Assembly (NCBI GenBank): GCA_022848865.1
Contig: JAJISE010000005.1
Coordinates: 2,930 to 66,929, forward strand
DNA from: Thermoplasmatota archaeon
GTDB lineage: Archaea > Thermoplasmatota > Thermoplasmata > RBG-16-68-12 > JAGMCJ01
Length of the DNA stretch: 64,000 nucleotides
Direction: 5' to 3'
The number at the start of each line of letters is the position of its first letter. The stretch's first letter is position 1. Below are positions 8,557 through 25,549 of the stretch, one piece after another. Position numbers and translations under genes: made by a program. The notes beneath the pieces are model-generated. The model ran no database searches, was not told the origin of the DNA, and saw nothing but the letters and a program-made list of their open reading frames with translations.

Positions 8557-8640
8557 CCTCTGATTGGAAGGTTCGGCCGATATTTAAGAGCGATGTAGGA
8601 GCGATGCAACAGGTTTTAATGTTCGACCACCTTGCGGTTC

Positions 8641-9000
8641 ATGATGATACCTGGAGGAAGGATGAGTCCCAAGCAGATGCAGGCAGCCATGAAGCGGTTG
8701 GGAATCAAGACGGAAGAGCTGGAGAACGTGGAGGAGGTCGTCATCAGGACAGCGGACAAGGAATACATCATCCCGAGGGCCGCCGTCACGAAGATGGAGG
8801 TCCAGGGCCAGACCACATATCAGATAGTGGGGGAAGCGGAGGAGTTCGCCAAGTCAGAAGAGGGCCCGCGGGTCCCTGAGGAGGATGTCAGACTCGTTGC
8901 AGAGAAGGCGAACGTCAGTGAAGAGAGGGCCCGCCAGGCCCTGATTGACTGCGACGGCGAGCTCGCGGAGGCCATCGTGAAGCTGATGGGCGAGGGATAG
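8641..9000 (+). CDS. nac: Nascent polypeptide-associated complex alpha subunit (NAC with UBA domain)
   Basis: MMIPGG...QMQAAMKRLGI N-terminus and C-terminal UBA-like domain. The alternative start is the ATG at 8662, which is preceded by a GGAGG. Confidence 0.8.
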   Translation: MMIPGGRMSPKQMQAAMKRLGIKTEELENVEEVVIRTADKEYIIPRAAVTKMEVQGQTTYQIVGEAEEFAKSEEGPRVPEEDVRLVAEKANVSEERARQALIDCDGELAEAIVKLMGEG

Positions 9001-9404: not shown

Positions 9405-9446
9405 CGGAACCGCTCGCTTGACCGTTCCTGCGCTCCGCTGTCAAAG

Positions 9447-9454
9447 TATATATA
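9447..9454 (+). promoter_or_regulatory. TATA box (tatatata) about 27 nt upstream of the inferred SRP RNA 5' end
   Basis: AT-rich octamer in an otherwise GC-rich region. The spacing to the start of the terminal helix fits an archaeal BRE/TATA promoter. Confidence 0.5.
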
Positions 9455-9476
9455 CCTACGAGAACTTTGAACGCTT

Positions 9477-9784
9477 GCTAGGCTTGACCGGAGGGCTCGG
9501 CGTCCTCTTGTACACCGAAACCGTCGTTAGCGGGGGTGACAGTCGAGGGCGGCGTCACCAGCTTGATGTTGACCCTCTGGCCAACTATGAGGTCCTGTCC
9601 TGTGGGGCAGGAGGCGGTGAGAAGTCGATCGGAGGATCGAAACTATCACCCTGATCGTGGATATCGGGTCAGGCACGGAAGTGAGCAGCCTTACCACGAA
9701 CTACCGGCGCTCGCGGGGTCGCGGGACCGAGGCGGCCTGAGGACAACCGGCATCGAGTCTGAGCGTCCACCTCGGCGGCCTAGC
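9477..9784 (+). ncRNA. ffs: Signal recognition particle RNA (7S / SRP RNA), about 300 nt
   Basis: Conserved domain-IV / helix-8 motif GGUCAGG-CACGGAAG-UGAGCAGCC at about 9663-9688. The 5' end (GCUAGGCU) and 3' end (GGCCUAGC) pair as a terminal helix. There is no credible ORF here and a TATA box lies upstream. Confidence 0.6.
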
Positions 9785-10439
9785 TCAGATCCGGCAGCTT
9801 CATCTGTCTTGTATCCACCCTGAGATGGTTTATATCGAACTTCTCTAGAACAAGGTCTCTGAGGACAAGTATGGCGGGCTCCTCGAAGGCCCCGCTGGAT
9901 GTGTACGCGGGGTCGTTTCCAGGTATCTCTATCCCGCTCCTCAGAAGGAGCTTCCTGGCCTCGGACCTCTCCTCCCCCTTGACGCTCATCGCGGTGACCT
10001 CGTCAAAGCCGCACTCCCTCAGCTCCTGGAGGAAGACCGGTCTCCGGAAGAGCTCCTCCAACACAGACACTGCCAGAGCTGGCTTCTCCTTGTCGGAGAT
10101 CTCTGCCAACTTGCACTTATCCCCAACCGTCTCATAGATGTTCCTCTCTCGGTTCGCGGACGTCGCGTAGACCTTCGAAGGCGGTATCTGCTTCTCCCTG
10201 ACGACGCCCATGTCCGCCATCGCCCGCAGATAGCCTGTAAGAAAGAGACGATGAATCGCATGCCCGTCCTTGTTGAGCCGCCTCGCCAGACCGCTTATCG
10301 ATCTCTCCTCCTCCTTGACATACGAGATGATCAGATTCTTCAAAGTTCTCTCGGGGACAAACAACTGCTCACCGACCGGGTAACATACTTGGTAACAAAT
10401 AAGTCTTTTCATCCCCACAATGCCCTCAGACCTGGTCAC
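9780..10439 (-). CDS. Hypothetical protein, possibly a winged-helix regulator. It has a GTG start with a TATA box about 26 nt upstream, so it is likely leaderless.
   Basis: 219-aa ORF. TTTATA at about 10461-10466 on the minus strand. The alternative start is Met10 (MKRLICY). Confidence 0.5.
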   Translation of the reverse strand: MTRSEGIVGMKRLICYQVCYPVGEQLFVPERTLKNLIISYVKEEERSISGLARRLNKDGHAIHRLFLTGYLRAMADMGVVREKQIPPSKVYATSANRERNIYETVGDKCKLAEISDKEKPALAVSVLEELFRRPVFLQELRECGFDEVTAMSVKGEERSEARKLLLRSGIEIPGNDPAYTSSGAFEEPAILVLRDLVLEKFDINHLRVDTRQMKLPDLS

Positions 10440-10625
10440 AAAGCCAGTTCAAAAACCTCTATAAATCCCGTTCGCTCTCTACCCGACGGGCCGGCGTCTA
10501 CTTGTTCGTTTCACACATTACGATAACTCCCCCTTTTATTTTTTGACTGGTTGAGTTGATATTACGCTTATTGATATTCAGAAGAGAACCTATATACCGA
10601 TTCAAATGGCTCTCAACAATCGCTG

Positions 10626-11336
10626 ATGCAGGAGAATGGAAGGTTCAAGAGCTATGTCCTTGGCTTTGATGACAAGCTGGACGGCGGAATCCCGGAAGGC
10701 CACATCGTTCTCGTTTGTGGAGAACCGGGCACGATGAAGTCCAGCTTGGCCTTCAGCATGCTGTACAACAACGCGCTGAAGGAGGACAGGGTCGCGGCCT
10801 ATCTCTCGCTCGAGCAGGGGAGGGACAGCCTGCTCAAGCAGATGAAGGGGATGGGGATGGACCCGCAGAACGTCGAGGACAAGCTCAGCATAGTCGACCT
10901 GAGCCTGATCAGGCGGAACCTGGAAACGCTCAAGGACCAGAGTTGGGTGGAAATCTTCAAGATGTACGCCTCCAATCTGAAGAAGAACACGGATTTCGAC
11001 CTCTTCTGCCTCGACTCGCTCTCGATCCTGGAGACGCTCGCCCGTTTCGAGTATCCCAGGGAGGAGCTCTTTCAGCTCTTCGAGTGGCTCAAGGACCTTG
11101 GTACGACGTGCCTGATCATCAGCGAGATGAACATCGGTGAGAAGCCGTTCGGCAGGTACGGGGAGGACTTCGTGGCAGACGGCATCATCCACGTGAAGAT
11201 GGAGAACGTGGACGAGGTCAACGTCCAGAGGCGCATAAGATGCGTGAAGATGAGGGGCACGAGTCACAGCCCGAACTACTACACGCTCCTTTTCGAAGAT
11301 GGCGTGTTCCAGGCGACGAGGGTCATCAGCGAATAG
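10626..11336 (+). CDS. KaiC-like / RecA-superfamily ATPase (single KaiC domain, FlaH/ArlH-like size) with a degenerate Walker A
   Basis: DGGIPEGHIVLVCGEPGTMKSSLAF. The P-loop reads GEPGTMKS, with Met in place of the conserved Gly. Walker B-like LFCLDSL. 236 aa. Confidence 0.75.
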   Translation: MQENGRFKSYVLGFDDKLDGGIPEGHIVLVCGEPGTMKSSLAFSMLYNNALKEDRVAAYLSLEQGRDSLLKQMKGMGMDPQNVEDKLSIVDLSLIRRNLETLKDQSWVEIFKMYASNLKKNTDFDLFCLDSLSILETLARFEYPREELFQLFEWLKDLGTTCLIISEMNIGEKPFGRYGEDFVADGIIHVKMENVDEVNVQRRIRCVKMRGTSHSPNYYTLLFEDGVFQATRVISE

Positions 11337-11470
11337 GCGGTCCATTTTCTTGGTGGCCAGCCAGCTTCGGAACCTTTTTATAACCTTTGCGTAATAGGTT
11401 CAACTAGCCACGGTGGTGTGGGCAGCACCATAATGAATGCCTAGGCTGATAAATGAGAGGAGGCTTCGAA

Positions 11471-14400
11471 ATGAAGTTAACGGAAGGGGAATCCTTCGCC
11501 AGGGTTTTGGCAATCGCGGTAGGACTTCTGATGGTTGTGCCGGCGACATACATCGCCGGATTTAGCACGCCTCTGGAGATGGTTACCGCGGAGACCACAT
11601 TTGTGTATTTCGGCAGCGAGAACGACCGCGACGCTCTGATGGAGTCGGGCGTTGAGATACTGGAGATCTACGACTCGTTTGCACTCGTGAGGACGACGAC
11701 CGCGCAGAACGACATGTTCCAGTCCCAAGGGATGATAGTGGACATGCCGTACGACCTGCACGCCATCCACGTGAACGGCATGATCATCGACACGCGCGTG
11801 GGGGAGTCGGAGATACCCGCCAACCTCAGGTTGGAGGCGTACAGGAGCGACGTGGACGGCCACTACCTCGTGCAGTTCCATGGACCTGTGAAGGAAGAGT
11901 GGAAGCAGGACATCGAGAGACTGGGAGGCAGGGTACTCAACTACATCCCGAATGACGCCTTCATCGTCCAGCTCGATGCGGAGCTCCTCGACGACGTGCG
12001 GTCCTTGACGGAGGTCCAGTGGCTGGGCGTGTTCCAGCCGGCGTACAAAGTCAGACCCGCCCTGTTCGAGATGAGCGGGAGGGTCTCCGTGAAGATAATC
12101 ACGTTCGCAGACGAGGGTCTTGGCCAGGTGGTAAGCTCGCTGCACAGGGACCAGATCAACTCGTACTTCGAGACCGATGACTTCGGCGTGGTCAAGGCCG
12201 AGGTCGACGTGACCGACATCCCGAGCTTCGCCAAGCTCAACTCGGTGCAATACATCGAGCCCATCTATGAGATGGAGCCGACGAACGCCAACATGCAGTG
12301 GATCATGCAGACCGACATACCAGACAACAGAAGGCTGTGGGACATGGGCCTCCACGGTGAGGGGCAGATCATAGCGGTCGCGGACACCGGGCTCGACTTC
12401 GACCACAGGTTCTTCCGCGAGGACGGTGGCACGGTCCAGACAGGTGACATCTACAACGTCACGGACCTCAACAGGAGGAAGGTCGTGAGATACCAGACCA
12501 TGAGTCACTGGATCGGCATCGACAGGATGACCGACCCGTGGGCCTGGAAGGACAGCGCGTACATGTGGGTAGCCGGGAACATCACGTCGGGCCACGGGAC
12601 CATGGTCTCGGGGACACTAACGGGGAACGATGACCCGCTTGGGGCAAGCCTGAATGACGGCATCGCCAAGGGCGCCAAGATATACTTCCAGGACATCGGG
12701 ACGCTCTACAAGAACCCGGAATGGAGCGACTGGTGGGACGACTCGCTGCGGTTCATTCCCGATGATTATCACGACCTGTTCTGGGACCCGTACAATGACA
12801 CTGCGAGGATCCACAGCAACAGCTGGGGCGCGAAGAACTCCGACTACGACCTCGAAGCCATGATGGTTGACAAGTTCATGTGGGAATACCCGGAGATGCT
12901 TGTCGTCTTCTCCACAGGTAACGATGGGCTCAACGGTCCGGGCAGCCCCGCGACAGCGAAGAACACCATTGCGGTGGGGTGGCATGGCAATTTCCCGAAC
13001 CAGGACAAGGTGGACTCCTCAAGTTCGGTCGGTCCAACAGACGATGGTAGGCGCACGCCCACGGTCATGGCTGTGGGGCAAGGCGTCTCCTCGCGGTCAA
13101 GCGGAAACAACTGGGACAACTCGAACATCGGGAACGAGCTCGGTTGGCAGGGAACGAGCTATTCCGGTCCCGTCGTCTCAGGTCTCGCCGCGATCACCCG
13201 CCAGTACTACACGGAAGGCTGGTACCCGACGGGCAACGCGGTCCCCGCGAACGGGTTCACACCCAGCGGGGCCCTTCTGAAGTCCACGATAGCCGTCGCC
13301 GGACAGCAGATGCAGGGGGCAAGGGCGGACAGGATGTTCGAGGGGACATGGCCCAACAGGGCACAGGGCTGGGGAAGAGTGGTCCTGGACAACGCACTCT
13401 ACTTCCCGGGTGATGCCAGCAGACTTCACATCGTCGACCACACTGAGGGCCTCGCGACAGGAGAGAGCGTGGAGTACACCTACTACGCCTCGAGCGGCGC
13501 AATCCCGTTCAAGGTCGCGATGGCGTACAGCGACTATCCCGGAGCGACGCCGACGACCAAGGCGCTCGTGAACAATCTGGATCTTCTTGTCACATCCCCT
13601 ACGGGGGAGACCTTCAAGGGGAACGTGTTCACCTCGGGAAACGTCTACGTCGATTACATGGAGTCCAGGCCCGACTTCGGGTCCTACGACATCGACAACC
13701 CGCTGGAGACTGTTCTCGACCTGTCCCCGAGCATCGGCTTCTGGAAGGTGAGGGTGACGGGGACGAACGTTCCCTCCGGGCCTCAGCCCTTCGCGCTGTC
13801 GATAATCGGTGCGACGGACCCGGGCTACGGACAGCTGTTCCTCGACAGGACTCTGTACGGAGACTCGGACACTATCACCATAACGGTGGAAGACGCGGAT
13901 GCGGTCGGCCCTCTGATCGTTCCGGTGTACAGCGACACGGAGACCGGCGGTGAGAATGTCACACTCCTCGAGATCGGAGCAGGTGTGTTCGAGGGGGCGA
14001 TCAATACCGCCTTCGGCACACCAACCGCCGACGGAGCCCTCCAGGTGAGCGAGGACGACACGGTCACGGTCGAGTACGCGGACACGACGGTCCCAATTAG
14101 GACCCTCCAGCAGACGGCGCTCATAGACGGCGCACCTCCGATGATAACGGGCGTGAAGGCGACGAGGATAACCAACGCGGCCGCCACGATAGTGTGGAAC
14201 ACGGACGAGTCGGCGACCTCGACGGTCTTCTACGACACCAGCCCTGTGTCTCTGACTAATACTGCGGTCAAGACGCCTGCTGGTCTCTTCGTCTCCCATT
14301 CCATTGATGTTATCGGCCTGCAGACAGGCTTGAGGTACTACTTCGACGTCGAGTCGACGGACAGATTCGGACACACGACTCTGGATGATAACCAGGGACA

Positions 14401-16612
14401 GCACTACAGCTTCGTTACGACCGAGAAGGCGGAGCTTCTCCTCGTCATCGGCGACGACACGTTCCCGCCGGAGAGTGTCGATAGGTACAAGAACGCGTTC
14501 GAGAGCTTCGGGTGGTCCTACAACGAGTGGTATGTGGACAGAAGCGGCGTTCCGACGCTAATGCTGCTCCAGGGATACAAGGTCGTGCTCTGGCAGACCG
14601 GCCTGGAGGAGTATCCACCGTTCGAGCCTGAGGAAAGGGTCCTGATAACGAACTACATAGACGAGGGAGGACGGTTCTTCGTCTCCTCGCACGACGTCGC
14701 ATGGGCGCTTGCCAAGGACTCCGGTTCCGAATACGCGTCAGTAGAGTCCGGACAGTGGGTCAATTCCACACTGAAGGCGGACTGGGACATAGACCCCAGC
14801 CTCTGGACGGCCAACGAGGGGTCCATCGGAGACCCGATCAGCAATGAGTACGTTGGATTCAACCGGGTAAATTACGAGCCCCACAGGTCAGGTGGTTCTG
14901 GGGATGAGGTTAAGGCTCAGAGCTACGGTGGATCCGCCTCGACCGTCTGGATGAACTACGGGATCGATGCTTCCCCGGGGGATATCGGGCTCAAGTGGGT
15001 CTCCTCGGCTGCGAACGGGACCGCGGGGCCTGGGAAGGTCTGGGGAGGTCAACCATCTAAGCTGGCCTTGTACTTCTTCGAGGTCTCCCGAATCAACTTC
15101 GCGGACGTGAACGACCTGGACAGAGGCTCGATAATCAACAAGACGGTCGTGTGGCTGATTGGCCACGACCATCCAGATGTCCAGGTGATCTCTCCCAACG
15201 GCGGAGAGGTCTTCGTCGGGAACACCGTACAGATCGACTGGAGCCGCCAGGTGTACTCGTCAGGCGTAAACAGCCAGGCGCTCTTCTACAGCCCGGACGA
15301 CGGTCAGTCATGGGTGAGGATAACGCCCGACCCGCTGCCGGGAGACACGACCTACAACTGGAACGTGATCGGCCTGCAGAACGGGATACACTACCGCGTG
15401 AAGGTCGTTGTCGAGGACGACGGCGTCCCCTACCCGATGCTCAACGGCACGGACATATCGGACGACACGTTCACGATCCTGAAGCCCGGGGGAGACAATG
15501 TTGGCCCCATAACCGTCCCGGGAAGCATAAACGCAGTCCCGAACCCGGGCGAGAGGTACACGAGCATCGCATTCACGGCGACCGTCGACGATACGAACTA
15601 CGGGAACTCGATGATACAGGCCGTGGAGTTCTACATGGACGCTCCTGGACCCGACGGCGGAGGAACGCCGATGAGCCCTGTGGACATCTTCGACACCGCC
15701 CTGGAGCAGGCCACTTGGACCGGCTCGGCGGACTGGCCGCCCGGAGTGCACTGCATCTTCATCCACGGGCAGGACGCCGCGAACAACTGGGGCGAGTGGG
15801 AGTCCAGGTGCTTCACCATGCTCGGCAAGGTAGTGCAGGCCGCATCCAACTTCATGGCGGGAATCACTGGATTCGCCTACGCGGATGTGACCCTCGCATG
15901 GACATTGTCACCTGACGACCCGCTTGACGTGACCAACTATGCCATCTACTACGGAACGAGCTATGACCCGACGGCTACAAGCTACTCGTTCCTCGCCAGC
16001 GTCCCGAACCAGACGGGAATGTACGTTCACGCAGGAGCTGGTTCGGCCATCAGCAATTACTACTACGCGATATACTCCAACAGCTCGGGCGGCGATTCCA
16101 CCATGGCCTCGCAGCAGGCGGCGAAGTACTGGATACTTCTTATTGGGGGCGTGAACTTCATCTCGGTGCCGATCACGCCATCCGACCCGTTCCCGGCAAC
16201 GGTGTTCAAGATGATGGACACCGACTTCAGGGTCTGGACCTACGACCCGCTGGCGGGCGGTTGGGACAGTTTCAATTCGGTCAAGCCCTACGGCGGAGGA
16301 TTGTCCACGATTATGCCTGGCAAGGGCTACTGGTTGGACGTTCCCGCAGCGGACGATCTCCACGTCGCTGGATACGTGCAGACCCAGGTCTCGATCGAGC
16401 TGATCTCGCCCTGGACGCTTGTCGGATACCCATCGCTCACGGGCTCGATGACGGTCGGTGACCTGAAGGCGACGACCGGGGCGACGAAGGTCGAGGGATA
16501 CTCGGCGGCAGCGCCCTACCACCTGCAGGAGCTTGCGGACGTGTACGTCCTTGCACCCGGAGAGGCCTACTGGGTCGGCGGCGCCGACTACATCTGGCTG
16601 GTCTACATCTGA
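11471..16612 (+). CDS. Giant secreted subtilisin-like serine protease (peptidase S8), 1713 aa. Domain order: N-terminal hydrophobic signal or anchor, propeptide-like region, S8 catalytic domain, beta-sandwich, Fn3-like domain, an insert of about 520 aa, and a conserved C-terminal module.
   Basis: Catalytic Asp in DTGLDFDH, His in HGTMVSGT, Asn in NDGLNGPGSPATAKN, Ser in GTSYSGPVVSG. GGAGG lies 9 nt before the ATG at 11471 (the track ORF starts at 11453). TTTTTATAA promoter at about 11379. Confidence 0.85.
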   Translation: MKLTEGESFARVLAIAVGLLMVVPATYIAGFSTPLEMVTAETTFVYFGSENDRDALMESGVEILEIYDSFALVRTTTAQNDMFQSQGMIVDMPYDLHAIHVNGMIIDTRVGESEIPANLRLEAYRSDVDGHYLVQFHGPVKEEWKQDIERLGGRVLNYIPNDAFIVQLDAELLDDVRSLTEVQWLGVFQPAYKVRPALFEMSGRVSVKIITFADEGLGQVVSSLHRDQINSYFETDDFGVVKAEVDVTDIPSFAKLNSVQYIEPIYEMEPTNANMQWIMQTDIPDNRRLWDMGLHGEGQIIAVADTGLDFDHRFFREDGGTVQTGDIYNVTDLNRRKVVRYQTMSHWIGIDRMTDPWAWKDSAYMWVAGNITSGHGTMVSGTLTGNDDPLGASLNDGIAKGAKIYFQDIGTLYKNPEWSDWWDDSLRFIPDDYHDLFWDPYNDTARIHSNSWGAKNSDYDLEAMMVDKFMWEYPEMLVVFSTGNDGLNGPGSPATAKNTIAVGWHGNFPNQDKVDSSSSVGPTDDGRRTPTVMAVGQGVSSRSSGNNWDNSNIGNELGWQGTSYSGPVVSGLAAITRQYYTEGWYPTGNAVPANGFTPSGALLKSTIAVAGQQMQGARADRMFEGTWPNRAQGWGRVVLDNALYFPGDASRLHIVDHTEGLATGESVEYTYYASSGAIPFKVAMAYSDYPGATPTTKALVNNLDLLVTSPTGETFKGNVFTSGNVYVDYMESRPDFGSYDIDNPLETVLDLSPSIGFWKVRVTGTNVPSGPQPFALSIIGATDPGYGQLFLDRTLYGDSDTITITVEDADAVGPLIVPVYSDTETGGENVTLLEIGAGVFEGAINTAFGTPTADGALQVSEDDTVTVEYADTTVPIRTLQQTALIDGAPPMITGVKATRITNAAATIVWNTDESATSTVFYDTSPVSLTNTAVKTPAGLFVSHSIDVIGLQTGLRYYFDVESTDRFGHTTLDDNQGQHYSFVTTEKAELLLVIGDDTFPPESVDRYKNAFESFGWSYNEWYVDRSGVPTLMLLQGYKVVLWQTGLEEYPPFEPEERVLITNYIDEGGRFFVSSHDVAWALAKDSGSEYASVESGQWVNSTLKADWDIDPSLWTANEGSIGDPISNEYVGFNRVNYEPHRSGGSGDEVKAQSYGGSASTVWMNYGIDASPGDIGLKWVSSAANGTAGPGKVWGGQPSKLALYFFEVSRINFADVNDLDRGSIINKTVVWLIGHDHPDVQVISPNGGEVFVGNTVQIDWSRQVYSSGVNSQALFYSPDDGQSWVRITPDPLPGDTTYNWNVIGLQNGIHYRVKVVVEDDGVPYPMLNGTDISDDTFTILKPGGDNVGPITVPGSINAVPNPGERYTSIAFTATVDDTNYGNSMIQAVEFYMDAPGPDGGGTPMSPVDIFDTALEQATWTGSADWPPGVHCIFIHGQDAANNWGEWESRCFTMLGKVVQAASNFMAGITGFAYADVTLAWTLSPDDPLDVTNYAIYYGTSYDPTATSYSFLASVPNQTGMYVHAGAGSAISNYYYAIYSNSSGGDSTMASQQAAKYWILLIGGVNFISVPITPSDPFPATVFKMMDTDFRVWTYDPLAGGWDSFNSVKPYGGGLSTIMPGKGYWLDVPAADDLHVAGYVQTQVSIELISPWTLVGYPSLTGSMTVGDLKATTGATKVEGYSAAAPYHLQELADVYVLAPGEAYWVGGADYIWLVYI

Positions 16613-16655: not shown

Positions 16656-19600
16656 ATGACGAGCAGAAGCGTCATCGCAGTAATGCTATCCCTCGCGTTC
16701 ATCCTGACAATCGGTCCAGTTGACCTCGCCTCGACGAAAGGAGAGGTGTACGACGCGCGGGTGGGCGATCCGCACTACCTCGGAATCTATGGATTCGCTT
16801 TCGATACCAGGAACGGGGAGCCGCTGATTCCCGCCGCTCTGAGAGTGACAGACTATCCCACTGGAGGCGATGGTTACTACATCGTGCAGTTCAGCGGTCC
16901 CGTCACGGAGGAGTACAAGGAGTCGCTGACGCGAGCGGGCGGGGAGATCGTGAACTACGTTCCTTCGAATGCTTTCCTCGTGAGGATGGCCCCCGGACTG
17001 CGCACGAACCTGGAGAAGGTCCAGGCAGTCCAGTGGACGGGCGTCTTCCAGCCCGCGTACAAGATAGTGCCCGAGCTCACGTTCGAGGCGGGGATAGTCG
17101 AGGCCCAGATCATCACGTTCAATCCGGATGGCGTCAACGCCGTTCTCGAGCTGCTCCCGGAGCGCAGGGTCATCTACACGTACGAGGGCAAGGACTTCGG
17201 CAGAGTGGACGCCCGCGTGACCTACGAGCAGGTCGTCGAAATCGCCCGCCTCGCCGACGTCAACTTCATACAGCCGCGAGAGGTTCCGGAGGTCCAGAAC
17301 AGGCGGATGCAGTGGATAATGCAGACGAACGTCCAAAACGACAGGCGCATCTGGGACATGGGGATATCAGGCGAGGGACAGCTCGTCGGGTTCTCCGACA
17401 CGGGGATAGATTTCGACCACAACTTCTTCCGCGAGAACGCGACGACGATACAGAAGGGCGACATCTATAACGTCACGGACACGACCCGAAGGAAGCTCGT
17501 GCGGTACTGGGTGCACGGCGGCGCAAACCAGGAGTGGGCATGGAAGGACAGCCCCAACCGCTGGGACCCCGGCGCTGGATGGGCGACCATAGGACACGGG
17601 ACCATGGTGACGGGGACGTTCGGCGGCAATGACGATTCGATCGGCTCGAGCACCAATGACGGAGGCGCCAAAGGCGCCAAGGTGTTCTTCCAGGACATAG
17701 GAGACGTGCAGCAATGGGGAGGATACTGGCGGGATGCCTTGGCCTGGGTACCCTCTGACTACGACAATCTCTTCGGTCCCGCCTACAACGCGGGCGCGAG
17801 GGTGCACTCAGGTTCCTGGGGCTCCTCCACGACCGCCTACACGCAGGGCGCGCAGATGCTGGACGAATTCATGTGGAACAATCCTGATATGCTGATCATA
17901 TTCTCGAACGGGAACGGAGGCGGGGGCTGGTACGACGTCGTTAGCCCCGCCACTGCCAAGAACGTGCTGTCATCGGGATCGAGCGCGACGTCTCCGAACC
18001 AGAACAGCGTCGCCGACTACAGCAGCCCCGGACCGACCTCCGACGGTAGGAGAAAGCCCACCGTCATTGCGGTCGGAGAAGGCACCTCATCCATGTCTAC
18101 GGGGAACCCGAGGGACGATACGAACACGGCCTGGGAGGCGGGCTGGGGCGGAACGAGCTACTCGGCACCCGACCACGCATCGCTCGCGGCCATGACCCGC
18201 CAGTACTTCATGGAGGGTTGGTGGCCGACTGGGACGAAGAACCCCGCGGATGGTTTCGAGCCCTCCGCAGCATTGGTGAAGGGCGTGCTGGCGGCAAGCG
18301 CCCAGCAGATGACCGGCTCGTACACGGACAGGGAGAACGAGAACACCTGGCCCAACAACGCACAAGGCTGGGGGCGGGTCCTCCTGGACGACGCACTCTG
18401 CTTCGCCGGGGACACGAGGCGCATGGAGATCGTTGACGACACGTCCAGCCTGAGCACGGGAGAATCAAGGATCGAGTCCTACTACGTTCTCGATTCCGCA
18501 GAGCCGCTGAGGGTGATGCTCACGTGGACCGATTATCCCGGGGTCGCGTGGACCACACCGAACATCGTGAACGACCTCGACCTTCTTGTGACGGACCCGC
18601 TCGGAACCACGTACAAGGGCAATGTCATGGGGACCTTCGCTCAGGGAGAGTCGCAACCCGACACAGGCAGCTACGACAGGCTGAACGTGCAGGAGGGCGT
18701 CCACATCAAGAGCCCCATGGTGGGCGCGTGGACGATAGAAGTGATAGGGTACAACGTCCCGAGCGGCCCGCAGCCCTACGCCCTGGTGGCGCTCGGCGAC
18801 CTCGGCACGGGCTGGGGGCAGGTGTACCTGGACCGGAGCGTCTACGGGGACAGCGACACGATAGGGATAACTGTCCGGGACACGGGACCGACGGCCGTGA
18901 ACGTGACCATCTGGAGCACGACGGAACCCACTCCCGAGACGGTCTCGCTGAACGAGTCCGCGCCCGGCTCAGGGAGATGGACGGGGACGATCAACACTAC
19001 TACCGGTGCGCCAACGACTGACGGAGAGTTGCAGGTCTCGGAGGGCGATCTGGTGACCGTTCAGTACGACGACATGAACCCGATACACACTTCCACGGAC
19101 ACGGCGACGATAGACGCCTCGGCCCCGCTGATATTCAACCTCATGGTAACCAACATCACGTCCACGACCGCGAACGTCATATGGAGGACGAACGAGCCCG
19201 CGGACTCGAGAGTGTACTACAACACGAGCGACCCGCTCGACGCGGAGGAATACATGAGCGGGTACCGCATCCAGCACGACGTGCTACTGACGGGACTGCA
19301 GCCCGAGACGACGTACATGTTCGACGTGGAGTCCTCGGACCCGTACGATCACACGACCACTGACACGAATGGAGGGCTGCACTACAACTTCACGACGCTG
19401 AAGCTCTCGCCCGAGCCCCCGACGAACCTCAGAGCATGGCTGTTCGGACCCAACTACATCCATGTCCATATCGAGTGGGACCTCTCGGCAGACGACGCGA
19501 CGATGATCGACCACTACACGGTGTACTTCAACACAGGCGCATACGATCCAGACGGGACGGGATACCAGTTCCTGGCGACGGTCCTGCAGGGCTTCAACTT

Positions 19601-20189
19601 CTACAACCACTACAACATGGGGCACCTGAACTGGATGAACATCTTCTACTACGTGGAGGCGAACTACAGCGCTGGACTTCCGGCCAGGACCGAGGACCAG
19701 GCGGCCAAGTTCACAAGATGGACGCCACCGGGCAACGTGCTTCTTTCCTTCCCGCTCAAGATGGTCAACGAGACCATAGAGTACGCGCTGCAGACGGTCA
19801 GCTGGGACATGGCGAGGTTCTACGATCCGTGGACGGAGGAGTGGAGGGAGAACCACATCTGGAAGAGCTGGAACGACCTTCTGACGGTGAACCAGTCCAT
19901 GGCGATCTGGGTCAATGTGACTTCGGCCGAGCCTGTGACGAGCGCGGGGGTCGTGCCCAAGAGCGCGGAGATCTTCCTGAAGGAAGGGTGGAACCTGGTC
20001 GGGTTCCCGCACCTGTACTGGGACTACACAGCTGGCGATCTGATGGCGCAGACCGGGGCCGAGAAGGCGGAGAGCTTCAACGCCGTCGCACCGCCGTACT
20101 ACCTGTACCGCCTCACTGGACCGATGTACATGGCCCCGGGCGAAGGATACTGGATAAAGGTCCCCGCCGACACCATGTGGATGCTGTAG
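16656..20189 (+). CDS. Secreted subtilisin-like serine protease (peptidase S8), 1177 aa. It is a paralog of the upstream gene with the same domain order but lacks the 520-aa insert.
   Basis: Sec-type signal MTSRSVIAVMLSLAFILTIGPVDLA. DTGIDFDH, HGTMVTGT and GTSYSAPDH catalytic motifs. Fn3-like domain. C-terminal module homologous to protease 1 (GWNLVGFP...APGEGYW). Own TATA (catatagg) about 26 nt upstream. Confidence 0.85.
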   Translation: MTSRSVIAVMLSLAFILTIGPVDLASTKGEVYDARVGDPHYLGIYGFAFDTRNGEPLIPAALRVTDYPTGGDGYYIVQFSGPVTEEYKESLTRAGGEIVNYVPSNAFLVRMAPGLRTNLEKVQAVQWTGVFQPAYKIVPELTFEAGIVEAQIITFNPDGVNAVLELLPERRVIYTYEGKDFGRVDARVTYEQVVEIARLADVNFIQPREVPEVQNRRMQWIMQTNVQNDRRIWDMGISGEGQLVGFSDTGIDFDHNFFRENATTIQKGDIYNVTDTTRRKLVRYWVHGGANQEWAWKDSPNRWDPGAGWATIGHGTMVTGTFGGNDDSIGSSTNDGGAKGAKVFFQDIGDVQQWGGYWRDALAWVPSDYDNLFGPAYNAGARVHSGSWGSSTTAYTQGAQMLDEFMWNNPDMLIIFSNGNGGGGWYDVVSPATAKNVLSSGSSATSPNQNSVADYSSPGPTSDGRRKPTVIAVGEGTSSMSTGNPRDDTNTAWEAGWGGTSYSAPDHASLAAMTRQYFMEGWWPTGTKNPADGFEPSAALVKGVLAASAQQMTGSYTDRENENTWPNNAQGWGRVLLDDALCFAGDTRRMEIVDDTSSLSTGESRIESYYVLDSAEPLRVMLTWTDYPGVAWTTPNIVNDLDLLVTDPLGTTYKGNVMGTFAQGESQPDTGSYDRLNVQEGVHIKSPMVGAWTIEVIGYNVPSGPQPYALVALGDLGTGWGQVYLDRSVYGDSDTIGITVRDTGPTAVNVTIWSTTEPTPETVSLNESAPGSGRWTGTINTTTGAPTTDGELQVSEGDLVTVQYDDMNPIHTSTDTATIDASAPLIFNLMVTNITSTTANVIWRTNEPADSRVYYNTSDPLDAEEYMSGYRIQHDVLLTGLQPETTYMFDVESSDPYDHTTTDTNGGLHYNFTTLKLSPEPPTNLRAWLFGPNYIHVHIEWDLSADDATMIDHYTVYFNTGAYDPDGTGYQFLATVLQGFNFYNHYNMGHLNWMNIFYYVEANYSAGLPARTEDQAAKFTRWTPPGNVLLSFPLKMVNETIEYALQTVSWDMARFYDPWTEEWRENHIWKSWNDLLTVNQSMAIWVNVTSAEPVTSAGVVPKSAEIFLKEGWNLVGFPHLYWDYTAGDLMAQTGAEKAESFNAVAPPYYLYRLTGPMYMAPGEGYWIKVPADTMWML

Positions 20190-20216: not shown

Positions 20217-22055
20217 TCAGAGGACGCCAAAGAAGTACGAAGCGCACAGGAACGAGAGCGAGTACAGTGGTATCGACACGATGAGCCCCTTCCCGATTCT
20301 TGAGAGAGTCGTGGTGATGTCGCCTCCCTGAAGGCCTTCCGTGAAGTAGCTCGCCACCGCCAGGTTGCAACACAGGAGAGCTCCCAGGATCAGCACGAGA
20401 GCGGACGGTGTCATCCCTCCGGAGCCCGAGAAGTGAGCTTCCATGAGCAGGGACATCGAGGCCGTGACCCCGAGCACCAGGGGCGAGAAGAACGTGAGGG
20501 TGCTGTTCACCGTCTGGACTATCGGGCTCATCTCGTCCCTTGCATCTGCCTCGATCCTCGAGGTGTCCCTGAGGTCGGATGCGATCAGCTTGGCCACCGT
20601 TCCCGCCAGAATCCCGTCCTTCTGCGTGATGTCCACGACCGCCTTGAGATTCGATCCCAGAATGGGTTCATCCCGAATCACGCTTTCGCATGTCAGCGTC
20701 TCCCCGGCCGTGGTCGTGCCCCTCGACATGAGGAAGATGTCCCTGGTGATCCTCCCCGCCAGTTCCGTCCCTTCCATCCGTTCCGCGGTCTTCAGAAGCG
20801 CCTCCTCCAGGGGCTTTTCCGCCAGAAGGAAGTCGCCAAGAGACTCGAGCCCCTCCGAGACATCCTCGCGGGATACTTGCGGCATCGTGCCTTTCATCAT
20901 CCTGCCCGTGAAGAGCATTGCGAGAGCTATCATCGAGGATGCGGACACAAGAACCACGAGGGACGAGACCGGCGTGGGCTCGAGAAGCCAGGCAGTCGCC
21001 ACACCCAGGACGATCGTGATGGATGCGGCAGCAAGGAGGGCGGACATACCACGGAGGCCGAGCTGGAGACGGCCAGGGGAGGAGAACGGCCGCCTGGACA
21101 GAACCTCCCTGCAGTACAGGAGCATGCCCAATGGGAAGACTATGTCGAGAATCACTGCAATCGCGGCGGGGCTGAGAGCGCTTTCCCCGCTCATTCCTTC
21201 GCCAGCAATGCCCACGGGAGCCGCGACGGTGAGCGAGGACATGGGCAGCAGCGAGGCGATCATGACGGGAAGCACGATACCCAGAGCGAAGACAACGTTT
21301 ATCGGCGCTTTGAGGGATGCGAGATATCCTTTGAGCTTCCTTCTCGTGTGCAGGTGGACAGGGGACATCAGGGAGCCGAGGTTGTCCCTGCGGCCCAGTC
21401 TCACGGCATCCGAGAACCGCCGTAGAGCCTCCTCGAGACCATCGTTTCTTCCCCTCCATTTCCGCACGTACTCGCCGAAATCCTCTGGGAGACTTCTTCC
21501 CTTCATGTGAACGTTCCAGATCATCCGCTGGAAGCCACCCTTCAGCATCCCCCTGGAGTTCTTCGCGGAGGAAAGGACCGCGTTCTCATAGGTCAGCGCC
21601 CCTCCCGCGCCGCCGATCAGATAGCTCATCACCTCTGGAGCCTCCCTGAGGGACGATTTCTCGATCCTCGCGGCGAGCGTTGCCGGATACGACAGGAACG
21701 TTCTCTGGAGAAGCAATGGGAGGATGAGAGCGAGAACGATGTAGATGGAGTGCGGGTGAAGCACCGCGAGGACCGGGACCGCCAGAAGAGAGCAGAGGAG
21801 GACCAGTCGTCCACCGGAGACCACCTCTCCAGGCCTCAGCCCTAGCCCCACGAAGGCGATGTCGTCCTCGATCGATCTCATGTCATAATCCAGCATCGAC
21901 TTCAGCTTCGAAAGGGCCGGGACAAGCCGCTTCTTGGCGCCTGACCGAGCCGTCCGGGCCGGGGCCGGGCTTGGCTTCGTCCTGCACCGCAGAGGTCCGA
22001 GCGTGCGGTGTGCAAGCCTGCAGAGCCTCGTGAATGCTACCCCGGGCCTAGACAT
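20217..22055 (-). CDS. Type IV pilus / archaellum assembly platform protein (TadC/FlaJ/GspF-like polytopic membrane protein)
   Basis: 612 aa. Two internally repeated halves, each with a cytoplasmic helical domain and TM helices. 8-nt overlap with the upstream ATPase gene. Confidence 0.75.
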   Translation of the reverse strand: MSRPGVAFTRLCRLAHRTLGPLRCRTKPSPAPARTARSGAKKRLVPALSKLKSMLDYDMRSIEDDIAFVGLGLRPGEVVSGGRLVLLCSLLAVPVLAVLHPHSIYIVLALILPLLLQRTFLSYPATLAARIEKSSLREAPEVMSYLIGGAGGALTYENAVLSSAKNSRGMLKGGFQRMIWNVHMKGRSLPEDFGEYVRKWRGRNDGLEEALRRFSDAVRLGRRDNLGSLMSPVHLHTRRKLKGYLASLKAPINVVFALGIVLPVMIASLLPMSSLTVAAPVGIAGEGMSGESALSPAAIAVILDIVFPLGMLLYCREVLSRRPFSSPGRLQLGLRGMSALLAAASITIVLGVATAWLLEPTPVSSLVVLVSASSMIALAMLFTGRMMKGTMPQVSREDVSEGLESLGDFLLAEKPLEEALLKTAERMEGTELAGRITRDIFLMSRGTTTAGETLTCESVIRDEPILGSNLKAVVDITQKDGILAGTVAKLIASDLRDTSRIEADARDEMSPIVQTVNSTLTFFSPLVLGVTASMSLLMEAHFSGSGGMTPSALVLILGALLCCNLAVASYFTEGLQGGDITTTLSRIGKGLIVSIPLYSLSFLCASYFFGVL

Positions 22056-23817
22056 ACACGGCCCTCACATCCATCCATTCCTTCCACTGCGCAACCAGGT
22101 CGCTGCCGGAGTAGCCCTCCTCGATGAGGGATGAGAAGACCGAGTTCGCCAGTGAGACGAGCTTCGCGGAGAGCAGCTTCGTCCCCAGCCTGCGGGCGAG
22201 CTCGACGACGTGGAGCTTACACTCAGCCCTAGCGTGGATGTTAGCAAGAGCTTCACCGTAGCTCATCCCCCAGGAGTTCGCAATCTCTCGAATCTTGTTG
22301 GAACCTTGAAGGAAGACATCGGTCTCGACAAGAGAGTCCTGCGAGATGCTGAACCTCATCAGGGGGAGGAACCTGCCATCATAGGATTCCTTGCAGAGCT
22401 CGGAGATCTCGATCACCCTGCGTCTGGAGTTCTGCGTTCCCCTCGGCCGGAACAGTCCCGCGACGATGACGATATCAGTGGCCGAGAAGGACTGCGGAGG
22501 AATGCCCAGGTCGTGGACAACTCGCTCGAACACGCTCCTGGATGAGCTTCCGTGGATCGTTCCGAGGACTGCCGAGCCCGCGGTTCCCACCCGCATCGCC
22601 TCGTAGAGCGTCTTGGCTTCCTCCCCCCTGACCTCCCCGAGGACCAGGGCCGATTCGCCCAAGCGGAGAGAGACCCTTAGCGCCTTCTCCGCTGTCATCC
22701 GGTTCGACGACTGCCCGGAACCGACATACAGGCCCTGGATCTTGTACCCGAGGCGGCGGAGCTCCGCGCACGGGAGCTCCAGTGTGTCCTCGATCGTGAG
22801 AACGCGCTGGCTGGTCGGGAACTCGAACATCATCGCTCCCAAGAGGGAGGACTTCCCCGCCCCGCGACTGCCCGTGACGAGTATCGTGGCATTCCCGTCG
22901 ATGAGGAACGAGATGAGACCGGCGGCTAGCGGCGTCAGACTCCTGTGATAGACCAACTTCGTGAGCGTCCAGGGGTCCGTGGAGTGCCTGCGAACGGCGA
23001 GGGCTATCCCGTCTGGGCTGAGCGGTGGTGCGACGGCCGTCAACCTGGCGTTCATGTCACCGAGGTCCGTCTCAAGGATCGGGCTCCTCTCCGAGAACGG
23101 CTTCCCGCTCATGATGAGGAGCTTGGAGATGATGTTACGCAGGCCCGTTTCGCACATGAGGATGTTCGACCTGCATCTCTGATGCGATCTTCCTCCCCCG
23201 GCGTCGGCAACCGTGAGATGGAGCGGCACCTTTTCGCAGGGTGCGTCGAGAAAGATGTCCTGAACGTTGGAATCGGCAAGGAGGATCTCGAGGATTCCCA
23301 GCCCGGCGGTGTTCCTCTCCAGAAGGACCGCCAGAAAGCGAGACCGACGCAATCGCTCGGCCTTCCCCAGGGTTCTGGGCAGATGGAGCGCGATCAGGTG
23401 TTCCGCCCGATTCCTGATGTAGCGTCTCACCTGGGCGGCGTTGCCGAGATCGAGATTCGAGGGCAGGACGGACCAGATCTCATCCACGACGTTCCAGAGG
23501 ATCGAGAGCTCATCCTCGGGTACTTCGAATGAGGGCGGAGAGAGCCAGTAGAGGAAATCGGGGGAATTCTCCAGACGGAAGATCTGGATGCGAGACTCTT
23601 CGACGGCATAGCTGCTGGTCACCTCGAGATGCTCAGGAGGGTCGCCGAGGACCCAGAAGGAGACGAAGAAGGGCTTCCACTTCTGGTCCCTGGCAAGGAG
23701 CCGGCCGATTGACCGTTGGATGGCACTTGTGTCTATCCTTCTGATCCTGAGAGCCGCGTGGGCGTAGGGGTCTCGCAGCGCGGTGGAGGTTCTCGAAGTC
23801 CTTTCGGCCGAGGTCAC
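22048..23817 (-). CDS. Type IV filament assembly ATPase (FlaI/TadA/GspE/VirB11 superfamily)
   Basis: Walker A VTGSRGAGKSSLLGAM. GEVRGEEA box typical of FlaI/TadA. 589 aa with an N-terminal domain. Confidence 0.85.
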   Translation of the reverse strand: MTSAERTSRTSTALRDPYAHAALRIRRIDTSAIQRSIGRLLARDQKWKPFFVSFWVLGDPPEHLEVTSSYAVEESRIQIFRLENSPDFLYWLSPPSFEVPEDELSILWNVVDEIWSVLPSNLDLGNAAQVRRYIRNRAEHLIALHLPRTLGKAERLRRSRFLAVLLERNTAGLGILEILLADSNVQDIFLDAPCEKVPLHLTVADAGGGRSHQRCRSNILMCETGLRNIISKLLIMSGKPFSERSPILETDLGDMNARLTAVAPPLSPDGIALAVRRHSTDPWTLTKLVYHRSLTPLAAGLISFLIDGNATILVTGSRGAGKSSLLGAMMFEFPTSQRVLTIEDTLELPCAELRRLGYKIQGLYVGSGQSSNRMTAEKALRVSLRLGESALVLGEVRGEEAKTLYEAMRVGTAGSAVLGTIHGSSSRSVFERVVHDLGIPPQSFSATDIVIVAGLFRPRGTQNSRRRVIEISELCKESYDGRFLPLMRFSISQDSLVETDVFLQGSNKIREIANSWGMSYGEALANIHARAECKLHVVELARRLGTKLLSAKLVSLANSVFSSLIEEGYSGSDLVAQWKEWMDVRAVYV

Positions 23818-24173
23818 CCCTCCACGATTCCAAGGCCTACCCTGAGAGCGAACCGTCTGAGGAGCATCGCCTCGTCAAGGATGATGAGGGCATCCGTCTT
23901 CGTCTGGAAAAGGCACAATTCGCACCTGGGTCCGCCATCCTCCTTAGCGATCTCAAGCATCTTCCTCAGCGTCGAGAAGAAATCGGTGAGCCCGCTAAGG
24001 AACGCGGCCTCCAATTCGACAAACAGCCTCCTCGGGTCCAGCTGACATCCGCGGCATTGCTTCAACTCCTTCTTCGGCCGGCAGCGCTGGTTCAGCTCCG
24101 CCCTGATCGCTGAGAGGGCGTCCAACAGGCTCCTCATCCTGGACAGGAGCTCCACGCTCAGCGTCGTGTACAT
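23814..24173 (-). CDS. Small zinc-ribbon protein, hypothetical. This is the conservative trimming of a 345-aa track ORF.
   Basis: CRPKKELKQCRGC ... CELC (Cx9CxxC ... CxxC). 4-nt overlap with the ATPase start. A longer version would run through the pilin promoter and gene on the opposite strand. Confidence 0.3.
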   Translation of the reverse strand: MYTTLSVELLSRMRSLLDALSAIRAELNQRCRPKKELKQCRGCQLDPRRLFVELEAAFLSGLTDFFSTLRKMLEIAKEDGGPRCELCLFQTKTDALIILDEAMLLRRFALRVGLGIVEG

Positions 24174-24335
24174 CTTCACAATGGTTCCGGAGAGAACCAC
24201 TCTCTCGATCCTCAGCCTGGAGTCGAAGGCCAATAACGAACCTGTGAAGCACCTCTGCTTCCTCAGATCGGGCCGGGCGTCGCATCCCGTGCAGTCGATC
24301 TCGAGAAGGTTCCTCTCTTTTGAATACTCCGCCCT

Positions 24336-24373
24336 GCATATGTCCAGGCCGACATCCCTCCGAACGCATATGC
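24336..24373 (+). promoter_or_regulatory. Two copies of the palindrome GCATATG(C), 30 nt apart, upstream of the pilin-like gene. Candidate regulator binding sites.
   Basis: ctGCATATGtcc at 24336-42 and cGCATATGCaac at 24366-73. They are followed by a TATA-like gatattta at 24407-14, then the ATG at 24438. Confidence 0.35.
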
Positions 24374-24437
24374 AACTTCCGTGAGGGTTAAAAACCTTCT
24401 TGGCAAGATATTTACCCAGTCCCCCGTTAGTAATAGC

Positions 24438-24887
24438 ATGTGGAGGGACGAGAGAGCAATTTCGCACATTCTGGAGGAGCTCGTGGCACTGGTGGTAATC
24501 CTCACGGCGCTGGGCCTGCTCCTGGTGAGCCTGCAGGGGAGATACGTGAACGAGATCGACACGCTGAAGGCACTGGAAATGAAGGAGGATGCAAGGGGTC
24601 TCCTTGAGAAGATCGTTTCCCACCCTCGGCTGACCAAGGACGGGGAATACCTCCTGCTGGACCAATGCTCTCTGATCAACGTGTCCGTTGAGCGGTTGGG
24701 AGAGATCCTCCAGACGCCGTACGAGTTCCGATTGGCGATATATGACGTGACGAACTCGACGGGCAGGTCCTTCCAGACTTCCGCGCCGTTCGGGAATGTC
24801 ATCGGATCGACGACTAGCTGCAACGTCTGGATCCGACAGGGGGAGGTCCACGCCGCTCGGGTGTCGATCCTCATTTGGAGAGGGTGA
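24438..24887 (+). CDS. Putative type IV pilin-like protein (class III signal-peptide-like N-terminus)
   Basis: MWRDERA|ISHILEELVALVVILTALGLLLV. The short polar N-region ends in R-A, followed by a hydrophobic helix of about 22 aa with acidic residues at +5/+6. TATA about 28 nt upstream. Confidence 0.45.
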   Translation: MWRDERAISHILEELVALVVILTALGLLLVSLQGRYVNEIDTLKALEMKEDARGLLEKIVSHPRLTKDGEYLLLDQCSLINVSVERLGEILQTPYEFRLAIYDVTNSTGRSFQTSAPFGNVIGSTTSCNVWIRQGEVHAARVSILIWRG

Positions 24888-24888
24888 G

Positions 24889-25407: not shown

Positions 25408-25549
25408 CGGGGAAACCGGCAGGCCTCATGAACGATCCCGGGATCCAGATGGAACTCTGCATGATAGGCACGGGCGCCTTCGGTCGTTACGGGCGCACCT
25501 CGGCAACATTATTACTCCGGTATGCATGTGGTTCCTCAGAGGAGAAACC

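Follow-up and report, generated by a model that had tools for sequence, protein, structure and literature searches.

A KaiC-like protein with a conserved bulky P-loop residue, encoded between a winged-helix-like gene and a giant subtilase gene in a Thermoplasmatota archaeon

Few residues in biology are as conserved as the final glycine of the Walker A motif, which is nearly invariant across P-loop NTPases and is routinely relied on to call P-loops 'dead'. How, then, should we read a KaiC-like protein in which methionine stands at this position, and a whole clade of relatives that keeps a large hydrophobic residue there? The question is raised by a 64,000-nucleotide (nt) stretch from a Thermoplasmatota archaeon (assembly GCA_022848865.1, contig JAJISE010000005.1, positions 2,930 to 66,929 of the forward strand), which we refer to as the window and which encodes a 236-amino-acid (aa) protein, here called KaiC-M, with the P-loop GEPGTMKS. 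The original prediction, made from the sequence alone, took this P-loop to be degenerate and the protein to be a possible FlaH/ArlH-like regulator of a filament ATPase encoded nearby. Our comparison of homologs, of the residues around the motif and of gene order at orthologous loci suggests a different picture, in which the nucleotide site appears to be kept rather than lost and the gene belongs to a recurrent triad with the genes for a winged-helix-like protein and a giant secreted subtilase.

The variant Walker A motif and the site around it

The gene and the parts of its nucleotide site lie in the window as follows.

10626..11336, plus strand: KaiC-M gene, an intact open reading frame (ORF) with an ATG start, encoding a 236-aa single-domain KaiC-like protein of the RecA superfamily
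10719..10742, plus strand: variant Walker A motif (P-loop) GEPGTMKS, that is G32-E-P-G-T-M37-K-S39 (gga gaa ccg ggc acg atg aag tcc), read directly from the sequence
10812..10817, plus strand: E63-Q64, matching the catalytic pair E77-E78 of the KaiC CI domain in an alignment, with the second Glu replaced by Gln
11001..11015, plus strand: Walker B strand LFCLD, with D130 (133/133 clade sequences; aligned to KaiC CI D145) followed by S131 (123/133)
11247..11255, plus strand: K208-M-R210, matching KaiC CI K224/R226 by alignment to KaiC 'LKLRGTSH'

KaiC-M is a member of the KaiC family beyond ambiguity. Pfam PF06745 (KaiC) matches its product with an E-value of 9.5e-42 and 143.4 bits (cutoff 26.6) over residues 8-222, which bears out the original description of a single-domain KaiC-like protein of about 230 aa. 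When PDB sequences were searched with KaiC-M, the strongest matches were to the CI domain of KaiC proteins (E 1e-30 to 1e-25); single-domain proteins of archaea came next, namely PH0186, PH0284 and SSO2452 (E 1e-18 to 1e-14). An AlphaFold2 (AF2) model built with 66 homologs as input reached a predicted local distance difference test score (pLDDT) of 94.7, with a mean of 98 over residues 31-40, and a predicted template modeling score (pTM) of 0.92. Foldseek returned PH0186 (2zts; TMq 0.81, E 3e-20, 28% identity) and KaiC CI (TMq 0.80-0.84) as the best matches to this model, with E-values of ~1e-19 to 1e-20 that place KaiC-M on the KaiC/RecA-like core fold.

Residue 37 is encoded by ATG at 10734-10736, within a stretch (10701-10745) that reads H-I-V-L-V-C-G-E-P-G-T-M-K-S-S. 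Because the strand (residues 27-32), the loop and the helix starting at residue 38 in the model are spaced as in KaiC (LVCGEPGTMKS versus LVSGTSGTGKT), M37 occupies the site of the last Walker A glycine, as had been read originally, and the motif departs from the canonical GxxxxGK[ST].

This departure recurs in every homolog that we collected. In a pooled set of 390 homologs reaching down to 34% identity, P-loop position 6 is M in 334, L in 40, F in 7, Y in 6 and R in 3, and Gly, Ala or Ser occurs at the position of the last Walker A glycine in none of them. The 120 closest homologs in a collection of 5.8 billion proteins (57-99% identity) have M in 100, L in 18 and F in 2, with no Gly. An exhaustive HMMER scan of 1.84 billion representatives of 50%-identity clusters gave 168 clusters at E <= 1e-30; among the best 150 of these, again down to 34% identity, all 149 motif-bearing representatives fit GxxG[TSAC]-[M/L/Y/F/R]-K[ST], and among 115 additional proteins found with a profile of the 29 most distant members, 112 have M and 3 have L. 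As judged from these alignments, the Walker A form of the clade is GxxG[TS]-[M>L>F/Y]-K[ST], usually accompanied by Glu-Gln in place of the catalytic Glu-Glu of KaiC, and Met, Leu, Phe or Tyr at the P-loop glycine position reads as a strictly maintained signature of a deep family, with no sign of decay.

A sequencing error or a pseudogene was considered and rejected, given an intact ORF and a non-Gly residue at the Met37 position in all homologs. Orthologs with an intact GxxxxGKS had been named beforehand as the sign of a sequencing error; not one of the 390 homologs carries it, and such an error is thereby excluded. A separate KaiC-like gene in a complete 2.5-Mb Thermoplasmata metagenome-assembled genome (MAG; CP070726.1, locus L111, 1-1177, minus strand) has the Walker A motif GPTGSAKT with a canonical Glu-Glu pair, so the last Walker A glycine has been replaced in more than one KaiC-like lineage of the phylum.

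The rest of the site, counted in an alignment of 133 clade sequences, is conserved to a degree that does not suit the word 'degenerate': the bulky residue is kept in all homologs, and the remaining residues that contact Mg-nucleotide or sense its gamma-phosphate from across a ring interface (K38, S/T39, E63, D130, K208 and R210) are invariant or nearly so. G32, G35, K38, D130 and K208 are each present in 133/133 sequences, D185 in 132, R210 in 131 (98%), R145 in 130, E167 in 126 and E63 in 124 (93%). Position 64 is Q in 104 (78%) and E in 23, and a looser string, '[STL]-hydrophobic-E-Q', is found in all 115 further homologs. KaiC-M thus has the Walker B Asp, the catalytic Glu and the trans-acting Lys/Arg of the KaiC superfamily, and the D-S that follows its Walker B strand is common to KaiC generally. 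The residues K224 and R226 of KaiC, with which K208 and R210 align, are trans-acting phosphate sensors, or an Arg finger, reaching the nucleotide of the neighboring subunit; conservation of K208 and R210 argues for a ring with nucleotide at its subunit interfaces. Of E180 and D181 in KaiC-M, the first is kept in 114/133 sequences, and the second is matched by D or E in 84/133; both positions align with the phospho-sites of KaiC CII and are acidic in CI too, which puts KaiC-M closer to the slow-ATPase CI half of KaiC than to its autokinase half. The pattern is what would be expected of a working nucleotide site rather than a decayed one, and we consider it probable that KaiC-M is a functional, nucleotide-binding member of a conserved clade with a Met-type P-loop.

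A triad with a winged-helix-like gene and a giant subtilase gene

KaiC-M is flanked on one side by a divergent gene and on the other by two large genes that read in the same direction.

9780..10364, minus strand: u194, encoding a 194-aa protein with a winged-helix-like domain and a conserved C-terminal domain; likely start TTG at 10364
10365..10625, no strand assigned: divergent intergenic region between u194 and KaiC-M, with conserved non-coding blocks (64 unique intergenic regions compared)
11453..16612, plus strand: giant secreted S8 subtilase of 1,719 aa with an N-terminal hydrophobic signal or anchor (Pfam Peptidase_S8, E 9.5e-30)
16656..20189, plus strand: second S8 subtilase, 1,177 aa, a paralog of the first (Pfam Peptidase_S8, E 1.3e-28)

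The subtilase ORF begins 116 nt 3' of KaiC-M, so the original placement of the gene directly upstream of a subtilase holds. The first subtilase has a single N-terminal hydrophobic segment (residues 12-39). The u194 product matches no Pfam or NCBIfam family, and because its homologs begin with MFVPE, the 219-aa ORF that was mechanically listed for it is over-extended.

We compared neighbors over 21 genome loci, 80 metagenome loci and several loci from exact protein look-up. The metagenome loci come from a scan with a 14-sequence alignment that yields 56-65% identical orthologs only, a sample that suits synteny counts and not diversity. The u194 gene lies divergently upstream of KaiC-M in 77 of the 90 testable loci, and KaiC-M is followed on its own strand by the gene for a ~1,700-aa subtilase in 65 of 78. 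Where both sides could be tested (43 unique loci), the two genes are present together in 31 and absent together in 12, and no locus has only one of them. The triad is still there at 56-60% KaiC-M identity, where the identity of the subtilases is 36-40%, and between the loci that carry it a glyoxalase gene, the second subtilase gene and a pilus-like gene block come and go. The second subtilase is limited to close relatives of the window (loci L002, L003 and L006).

The intergenic region is conserved better than the flanking proteins, which are only 50-60% identical. Its blocks in the window are GGTAACA-N5-GGTAACAAATAA at 10379-10402, CTCCCCCTTTTATTTTTT at 10527-10544 and TATATA at 10591-10596, ~30 nt before the KaiC-M ATG. 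Among the 64 unique regions, 55 carry a pair of GRTAACA repeats of the form GGTAACA-N5-G(G/A)TAACAAATAA ~40 nt from the u194 start, and in the same number the direct repeats GGTAACA-N5-GGTAACAAATAA overlap the likely TATA box of what would be a leaderless u194 gene. All 64 have CTCCCCC followed by a T-run (ACTCCCCC and then the T-run, corresponding to CTCCCCCTTTTATTTTTT) ~103 nt before the KaiC-M ATG, and the last TWATA stands at a median of 33 nt before that codon. Ahead of the KaiC-M TATA box, TTGATATT occurs twice (near 10556-10578), with GATAAC boxes there in other lineages, so that repeated GRTAAC boxes lie close to both TATA-like elements of the region. We infer from this arrangement that the blocks have promoter and operator roles, with the GRTAAC-type repeats as candidate operator sites for the winged-helix protein; the CTCCCCC-T-run element may serve as a promoter element or bind a protein, or it may end a tiny transcript as an oligo-T terminator. 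An Rfam search of the intergenic region gave no match to an RNA family, and a scan for sigma-70 promoters and terminators is uninformative for archaeal DNA.

Two further observations concern the genes on either side. An archaeal signal recognition particle (SRP) RNA gene (Rfam RF01857, 197.9 bits, E 1.5e-48) occupies 9476-9785 on the plus strand and abuts the 3' end of u194; the mechanically listed ORFs at 9418-9654 and 9536-9823 are spurious because they lie inside it. Both subtilases end in a common C-terminal domain of ~150-260 aa (15800-16612 and 19390-20189), which also ends a 3,212-aa surface protein in locus L113 (1471-1935), and related sequence is found in L111 (4282-4776, minus strand; a 172-aa ORF) and in locus L018 (19347-19586, minus strand). 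This domain may serve lineage-specific surface anchoring or sorting.

A proposed nucleotide switch and its alternatives

We propose that KaiC-M would bind ATP at the subunit interfaces of a hexameric ring, and that the bulky hydrophobic side chain beside the P-loop lysine, together with the Glu-to-Gln replacement, would slow or gate hydrolysis. KaiC-M would then act as a long-lived nucleotide-state switch and not as a motor or an autokinase, and with the winged-helix protein it would control subtilase expression from the shared, conserved intergenic region. KaiC CI, which hydrolyses ATP very slowly, offers one analogy for such a switch. FlaH, which binds ATP without hydrolysing it, offers another (PMC5019145). 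Reduced hydrolysis by KaiC-M is plausible, regulatory control of the protease is the likely role of the triad, and the pairing of KaiC-M with a winged helix-turn-helix (wHTH) protein would fit the proposed archaeal signaling pairs of a KaiC-like ATPase and a wHTH protein. The specific link between KaiC-M and the subtilase we hold only tentatively, at somewhat less than even chances; for the combined statement, a clade of nucleotide-bound switches together with a module that controls the subtilase, we see the chances as evenly balanced.

Several points weigh against this proposal. The reading of KaiC-M as a nucleotide-binding, ring-forming protein with slowed hydrolysis comes from residue conservation, and a bulky residue at the P-loop glycine position might block nucleotide binding outright. 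KaiC-M is linked to the subtilase by gene order only. A sister group, 62-65% identical, has neither u194 nor the subtilase. The gap between KaiC-M and the subtilase (median ~128 nt) often has a TATA-like box of its own, which makes the two genes neighbors for which an operon is not demonstrable. Finally, the wider region is likewise syntenic in the same genomes, so that part of the triad's conservation may be inherited gene order. Its anchors across the clade are the following.

6790-8556, minus strand: ABCE1-like gene (Fer4 and two ABC domains in the ortholog)
8632-9000, plus strand: NAC gene
27959-30049, plus strand: MCM gene, 696 aa, with the canonical Walker A motif GDPGTGKS

The MCM protein of a lineage at 58% identity carries an intein (Intein_splicing and LAGLIDADG matches), and that of the window, judged from its length only, appears to be without one.

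It is accordingly conceivable, if on balance doubtful, that the triad is inherited synteny without functional coupling and that KaiC-M has its targets elsewhere. ABCE1, NAC and, further on, MCM keep their places at the same loci, the subtilase probably has its own promoter, and paralogs of KaiC-M have quite different neighbors. Yet u194 and the subtilase accompany KaiC-M in an all-or-none manner, it is the glyoxalase gene, the second subtilase gene and the pilus-like block that vary instead, and the u194/KaiC-M intergenic region is conserved above the proteins that flank it.

A different objection accepts the enzyme and denies the switch: KaiC-M could be an ordinary active KaiC-like ATPase that tolerates Met with no special kinetic role and works like any other signaling ATPase of this kind in archaea. 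All other catalytic residues are kept, the GPTGSAKT gene of L111 has likewise lost the glycine, and the last Walker A glycine is replaced in working ATPases, namely eukaryotic MCM2-7 (GDPxx(A/S)KS) and AAA+ ATPases of the MoxR type (GxPGxAK(T/S)). The archaeal MCM of the window has the canonical motif and so provides no precedent within it. A neutral change should revert or vary, however, and among 390 sequences there is no Gly, Ala or Ser; in most members the change is, moreover, coupled with Glu-to-Gln at the second catalytic position. We regard this account as unlikely.

Somewhat less likely still is a pseudo-ATPase of the 'iKaiC' type, in which Met fills or distorts the phosphate pocket, nucleotide binding is lost and the protein serves as a scaffold or adaptor only. 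The near-invariance of the glycine in P-loop NTPases speaks for it, as does the replacement of the second catalytic Glu as well. Inactivated KaiC-like domains are, besides, recognized in archaea (PMC5847659). Across sequences of 34-60% identity, such a protein would be expected neither to keep K38, D130 and K208 without exception and S/T39, E63 and R210 with few exceptions, nor to confine its substitution to large hydrophobic residues (M, L, F and Y) with no free drift.

The remaining alternative is the one from which the analysis set out, that KaiC-M is a FlaH/ArlH-like accessory subunit that regulates the nearby FlaI-like secretion ATPase. The genes concerned form a convergent block beyond the second subtilase, with an SPFH/Band-7 gene next to it.

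20217..24851, minus strand: type-IV-pilus-like block, context only and outside the conserved module
20217-22055, minus strand: 612-aa polytopic membrane protein with eight hydrophobic segments; no Pfam or NCBIfam match
22048-23817, minus strand: 589-aa ATPase of the T2SSE/TadA/FlaI superfamily (Pfam T2SSE, 9.6e-18), with the canonical Walker A motif GSRGAGKS
23814-24851, minus strand: 345-aa protein; no Pfam or NCBIfam match
25352-26509: SPFH/Band-7 gene

The 589-aa ATPase scores 125 bits on the TadA-family model and 89 bits on the FlaI model of NCBIfam, both under the cutoff. Small ORFs at 24796-25407 (plus strand), 26538-27050 (minus strand) and 27158-27910 (minus strand) each have one N-terminal hydrophobic segment, one of which reads ...ALTIIVVVVAVFIIASVVMSAVLYVMVSGL...; by eye, these three ORFs beside the block resemble genes for archaeal type IV pilin-like proteins.

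A FlaI-superfamily ATPase had been placed about 11 kb away, and it does lie 10.7 kb downstream. The claim that it is the functional partner of KaiC-M in the same block fares less well, as the ATPase gene is convergent and two subtilase genes stand between. Nor does the co-occurrence of orthologs that had been proposed as a check bear the partnership out: in most orthologous loci whose flank is long enough the ATPase is absent and FmdE and MCM come after the subtilase, and the best-annotated of them (58% identity) has FmdE and MCM there with no secretion ATPase within 10 kb. A block of membrane-protein and ATPase genes follows the subtilase only in L002, L003, L006, L036, L041 and L102, of which L036, L041 and L102 are more distant loci and the others close relatives of the window. 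This recurrence makes a loose association of subtilase and block possible, as a minority pattern, and, given the position of the MCM gene in the window, the second subtilase, the pilus-like block and the SPFH gene stand between anchors that are adjacent elsewhere.

Family models point the same way. On the circadian KaiC models of NCBIfam (NF006799 / TIGR02655), KaiC-M reaches 105.4 (cutoff 408) and 66.8 bits (cutoff 546), and it also misses the thresholds set for the curated families of archaeal KaiC domains, TIGR03880 (KaiC_arch_3, 101.6/249), TIGR03877 (thermo_KaiC_1, 90.2/307), TIGR03881 (KaiC_arch_4, 83.4/248) and TIGR03878 (24.4/232). The ArlH equivalog gives 49.9 bits (cutoff 215), FlaH PRK06067 49.7/194 and PRK08533 25.4/215, and in the PDB search FlaH reaches an E-value of 2e-4 versus 1e-30 for KaiC. 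In each of 66 clade members tested, KaiC-type models score best and ArlH/FlaH models come in the second tier; all 66 score below every curated equivalog cutoff, with best E-values that imply scores far under those of the archaeal KaiC families. Membership of FlaH/ArlH was rejected on the low hidden Markov model (HMM) scores, the non-canonical Walker A motif and a context that is not conserved, and membership of RadA/RadB on scores of 30.6/403 for bacterial RadA (sms) and 16.2/172 for RadB; placement relative to ArlH, RadA and RadB rests on HMM scores, not on a tree. We found no curated NCBIfam/TIGRFAM family that captures the clade, Pfam gives generic KaiC only, and matches of KaiC-M to DUF7125 are weak and below the Pfam cutoff. 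A protein search of a plasmid database returned KaiC or KaiC-like proteins only, mostly annotated kaiC, at <=34% identity, none of them close to the clade.

The accessory-subunit reading can draw on the ATPase, the polytopic membrane protein and the pilin-like ORFs 9-16 kb downstream, on the recurrence of the block after the subtilase in close relatives and in L036, L041 and L102, on ArlH, likewise KaiC-like with a single domain, which binds but does not hydrolyse ATP (PMC5019145), and on KaiC-like CirA, which regulates motility in Haloferax and shows that such proteins can control surface structures (PMC10983859), but against the ArlH and FlaH scores, a FlaH Walker A motif that is canonical (PMC5019145), an ATPase on the other strand that is missing from most orthologous loci and clade paralogs in many non-pilus contexts, we consider it very improbable.

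The wider clade and its known relatives

The nucleotide switch that we favor would concern many more proteins than KaiC-M. At 50% identity its clade falls into at least 150 clusters. All named members come from Thermoplasmata, Thermoplasmatota or Methanomassiliicoccales MAGs or from MAGs labeled only Euryarchaeota/Methanobacteriota; the clade is a large, uncharacterized and apparently Thermoplasmatota-specific group. Some members are fused to long arrays of TPR repeats or to an N-terminal zinc ribbon. Locus L027 (4135-12498) has four tandem Met-type KaiC-like genes, one of them fused to TPR repeats and a zinc ribbon, together with a divergent KaiC-like gene (GPPGVGKF) and genes for a V4R membrane protein and a DUF835 membrane protein; in the overlapping locus L028, Arf/Ras-like GTPase genes lie upstream of the tandem array. 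One Met-type member adjoins a STAND-TPR ATPase gene, and another adjoins a second Met-type paralog beside Pst/PhoU genes. In L113 (6001-7260), a Met-type gene is followed 4 nt on by a gene for a 179-aa Arf/Ras/Roc-type small GTPase, which suggests a signaling pair of a KaiC-like protein and a GTPase, and the GPTGSAKT gene of L111 is preceded by an overlapping gene for another wHTH-like protein of 194 aa.

Archaeal single-domain KaiC-like signaling ATPases are already known as a kind of protein. The conserved bulky P-loop residue, the paired Glu-to-Gln replacement and the triad that includes a giant subtilase seem not to have been described before: a literature search on the P-loop motif strings of the clade gave no relevant paper, with the 2017 survey of archaeal KaiC-like ATPases outside its scope, and a search on KaiC, Thermoplasmata and subtilisin gave nothing specific. 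In its boldest form, which we offer as a speculation and think less likely than not, GxxG[TS]MK[ST] would be an unrecognized P-loop class in an apparently Thermoplasmatota-confined clade, and the bulky residue would be functionally required, turning the RecA-type site, with the help of the Glu-to-Gln change, into a very slow, long-lived switch. In the lineage of the window, this switch and a dedicated winged-helix partner would couple the energy or signal state of the cell to how much giant extracellular protease these uncultured, protein-degrading archaea make.

If clade proteins bind or hydrolyse ATP, the sequence space of functional P-loops would be extended, and they would provide a natural experiment on how hydrolysis rates are tuned in timers and switches of the KaiC type. 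There is also a caution for annotation, in that such proteins should be called neither 'circadian clock protein KaiC' nor 'degenerate' nor FlaH. The three-gene module of winged-helix protein, KaiC-M and giant S8 subtilase is testable and may control extracellular proteolysis in abundant uncultured archaea of soils and sediments.

Among known systems, KaiC-M shares most with KaiC CI: the fold, the best sequence match, the Walker B Asp, the first catalytic Glu, the K-x-R sensors, the acidic residues at the CII phospho-site positions and the 'RGTSH' region. It differs in being a single domain where KaiC has CI and CII in tandem, in the change from Gly to Met and in the change of the second Glu to Gln, and there is no kaiA or kaiB near its gene. 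MCM2-7 and MoxR, in which the glycine is replaced as well, have the AAA+ and not the RecA/KaiC fold, and their replacements are the small residues Ala and Ser rather than Met, Leu, Phe or Tyr. PH0186, PH0284 and SSO2452 resemble KaiC-M in size and fold, PH0186 being the top structural match, and their function is uncharacterized; they are at most 28% identical to it, and their P-loops are, we assume, canonical. PH0284 and PH0186 assemble as hexameric rings (PMC5019145).

ArlH/FlaH has the same single-domain, KaiC-like RecA fold, and KaiC-M may likewise be a nucleotide-state switch. FlaH, however, combines a canonical Walker A motif with a deviation in Walker B, where Glu is replaced by Ser/Thr; it binds ATP with no detectable ATPase activity and works through nucleotide-dependent protein binding (PMC5019145). 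Its gene lies within the arl operon beside arlI and arlJ, whereas that of KaiC-M adjoins neither an ArlI-type ATPase gene nor one for an ArlJ-type membrane protein. CirA, unlike KaiC-M, has a conserved Walker A motif, and its function is disrupted by G33E (PMC10983859). The iKaiC domains of archaea are divergent, possibly inactivated KaiC-like domains (PMC5847659); the KaiC-M clade differs from them in retaining all catalytic residues save the Gly and the second Glu, and membership was rejected with K38, D130 and K208 invariant and E63 and R210 kept in 93-98% of sequences. The closest parallel in gene context is with the archaeal KaiC-like 'signal transduction hub' ATPases, which include CirA and GvpD as they are cited in PMC5847659 and PMC10983859: these are stand-alone or fused domains found beside wHTH, V4R, DUF835, small GTPase and TPR proteins, and the types of partner around members of the KaiC-M clade match those given for these hubs in such citing accounts.

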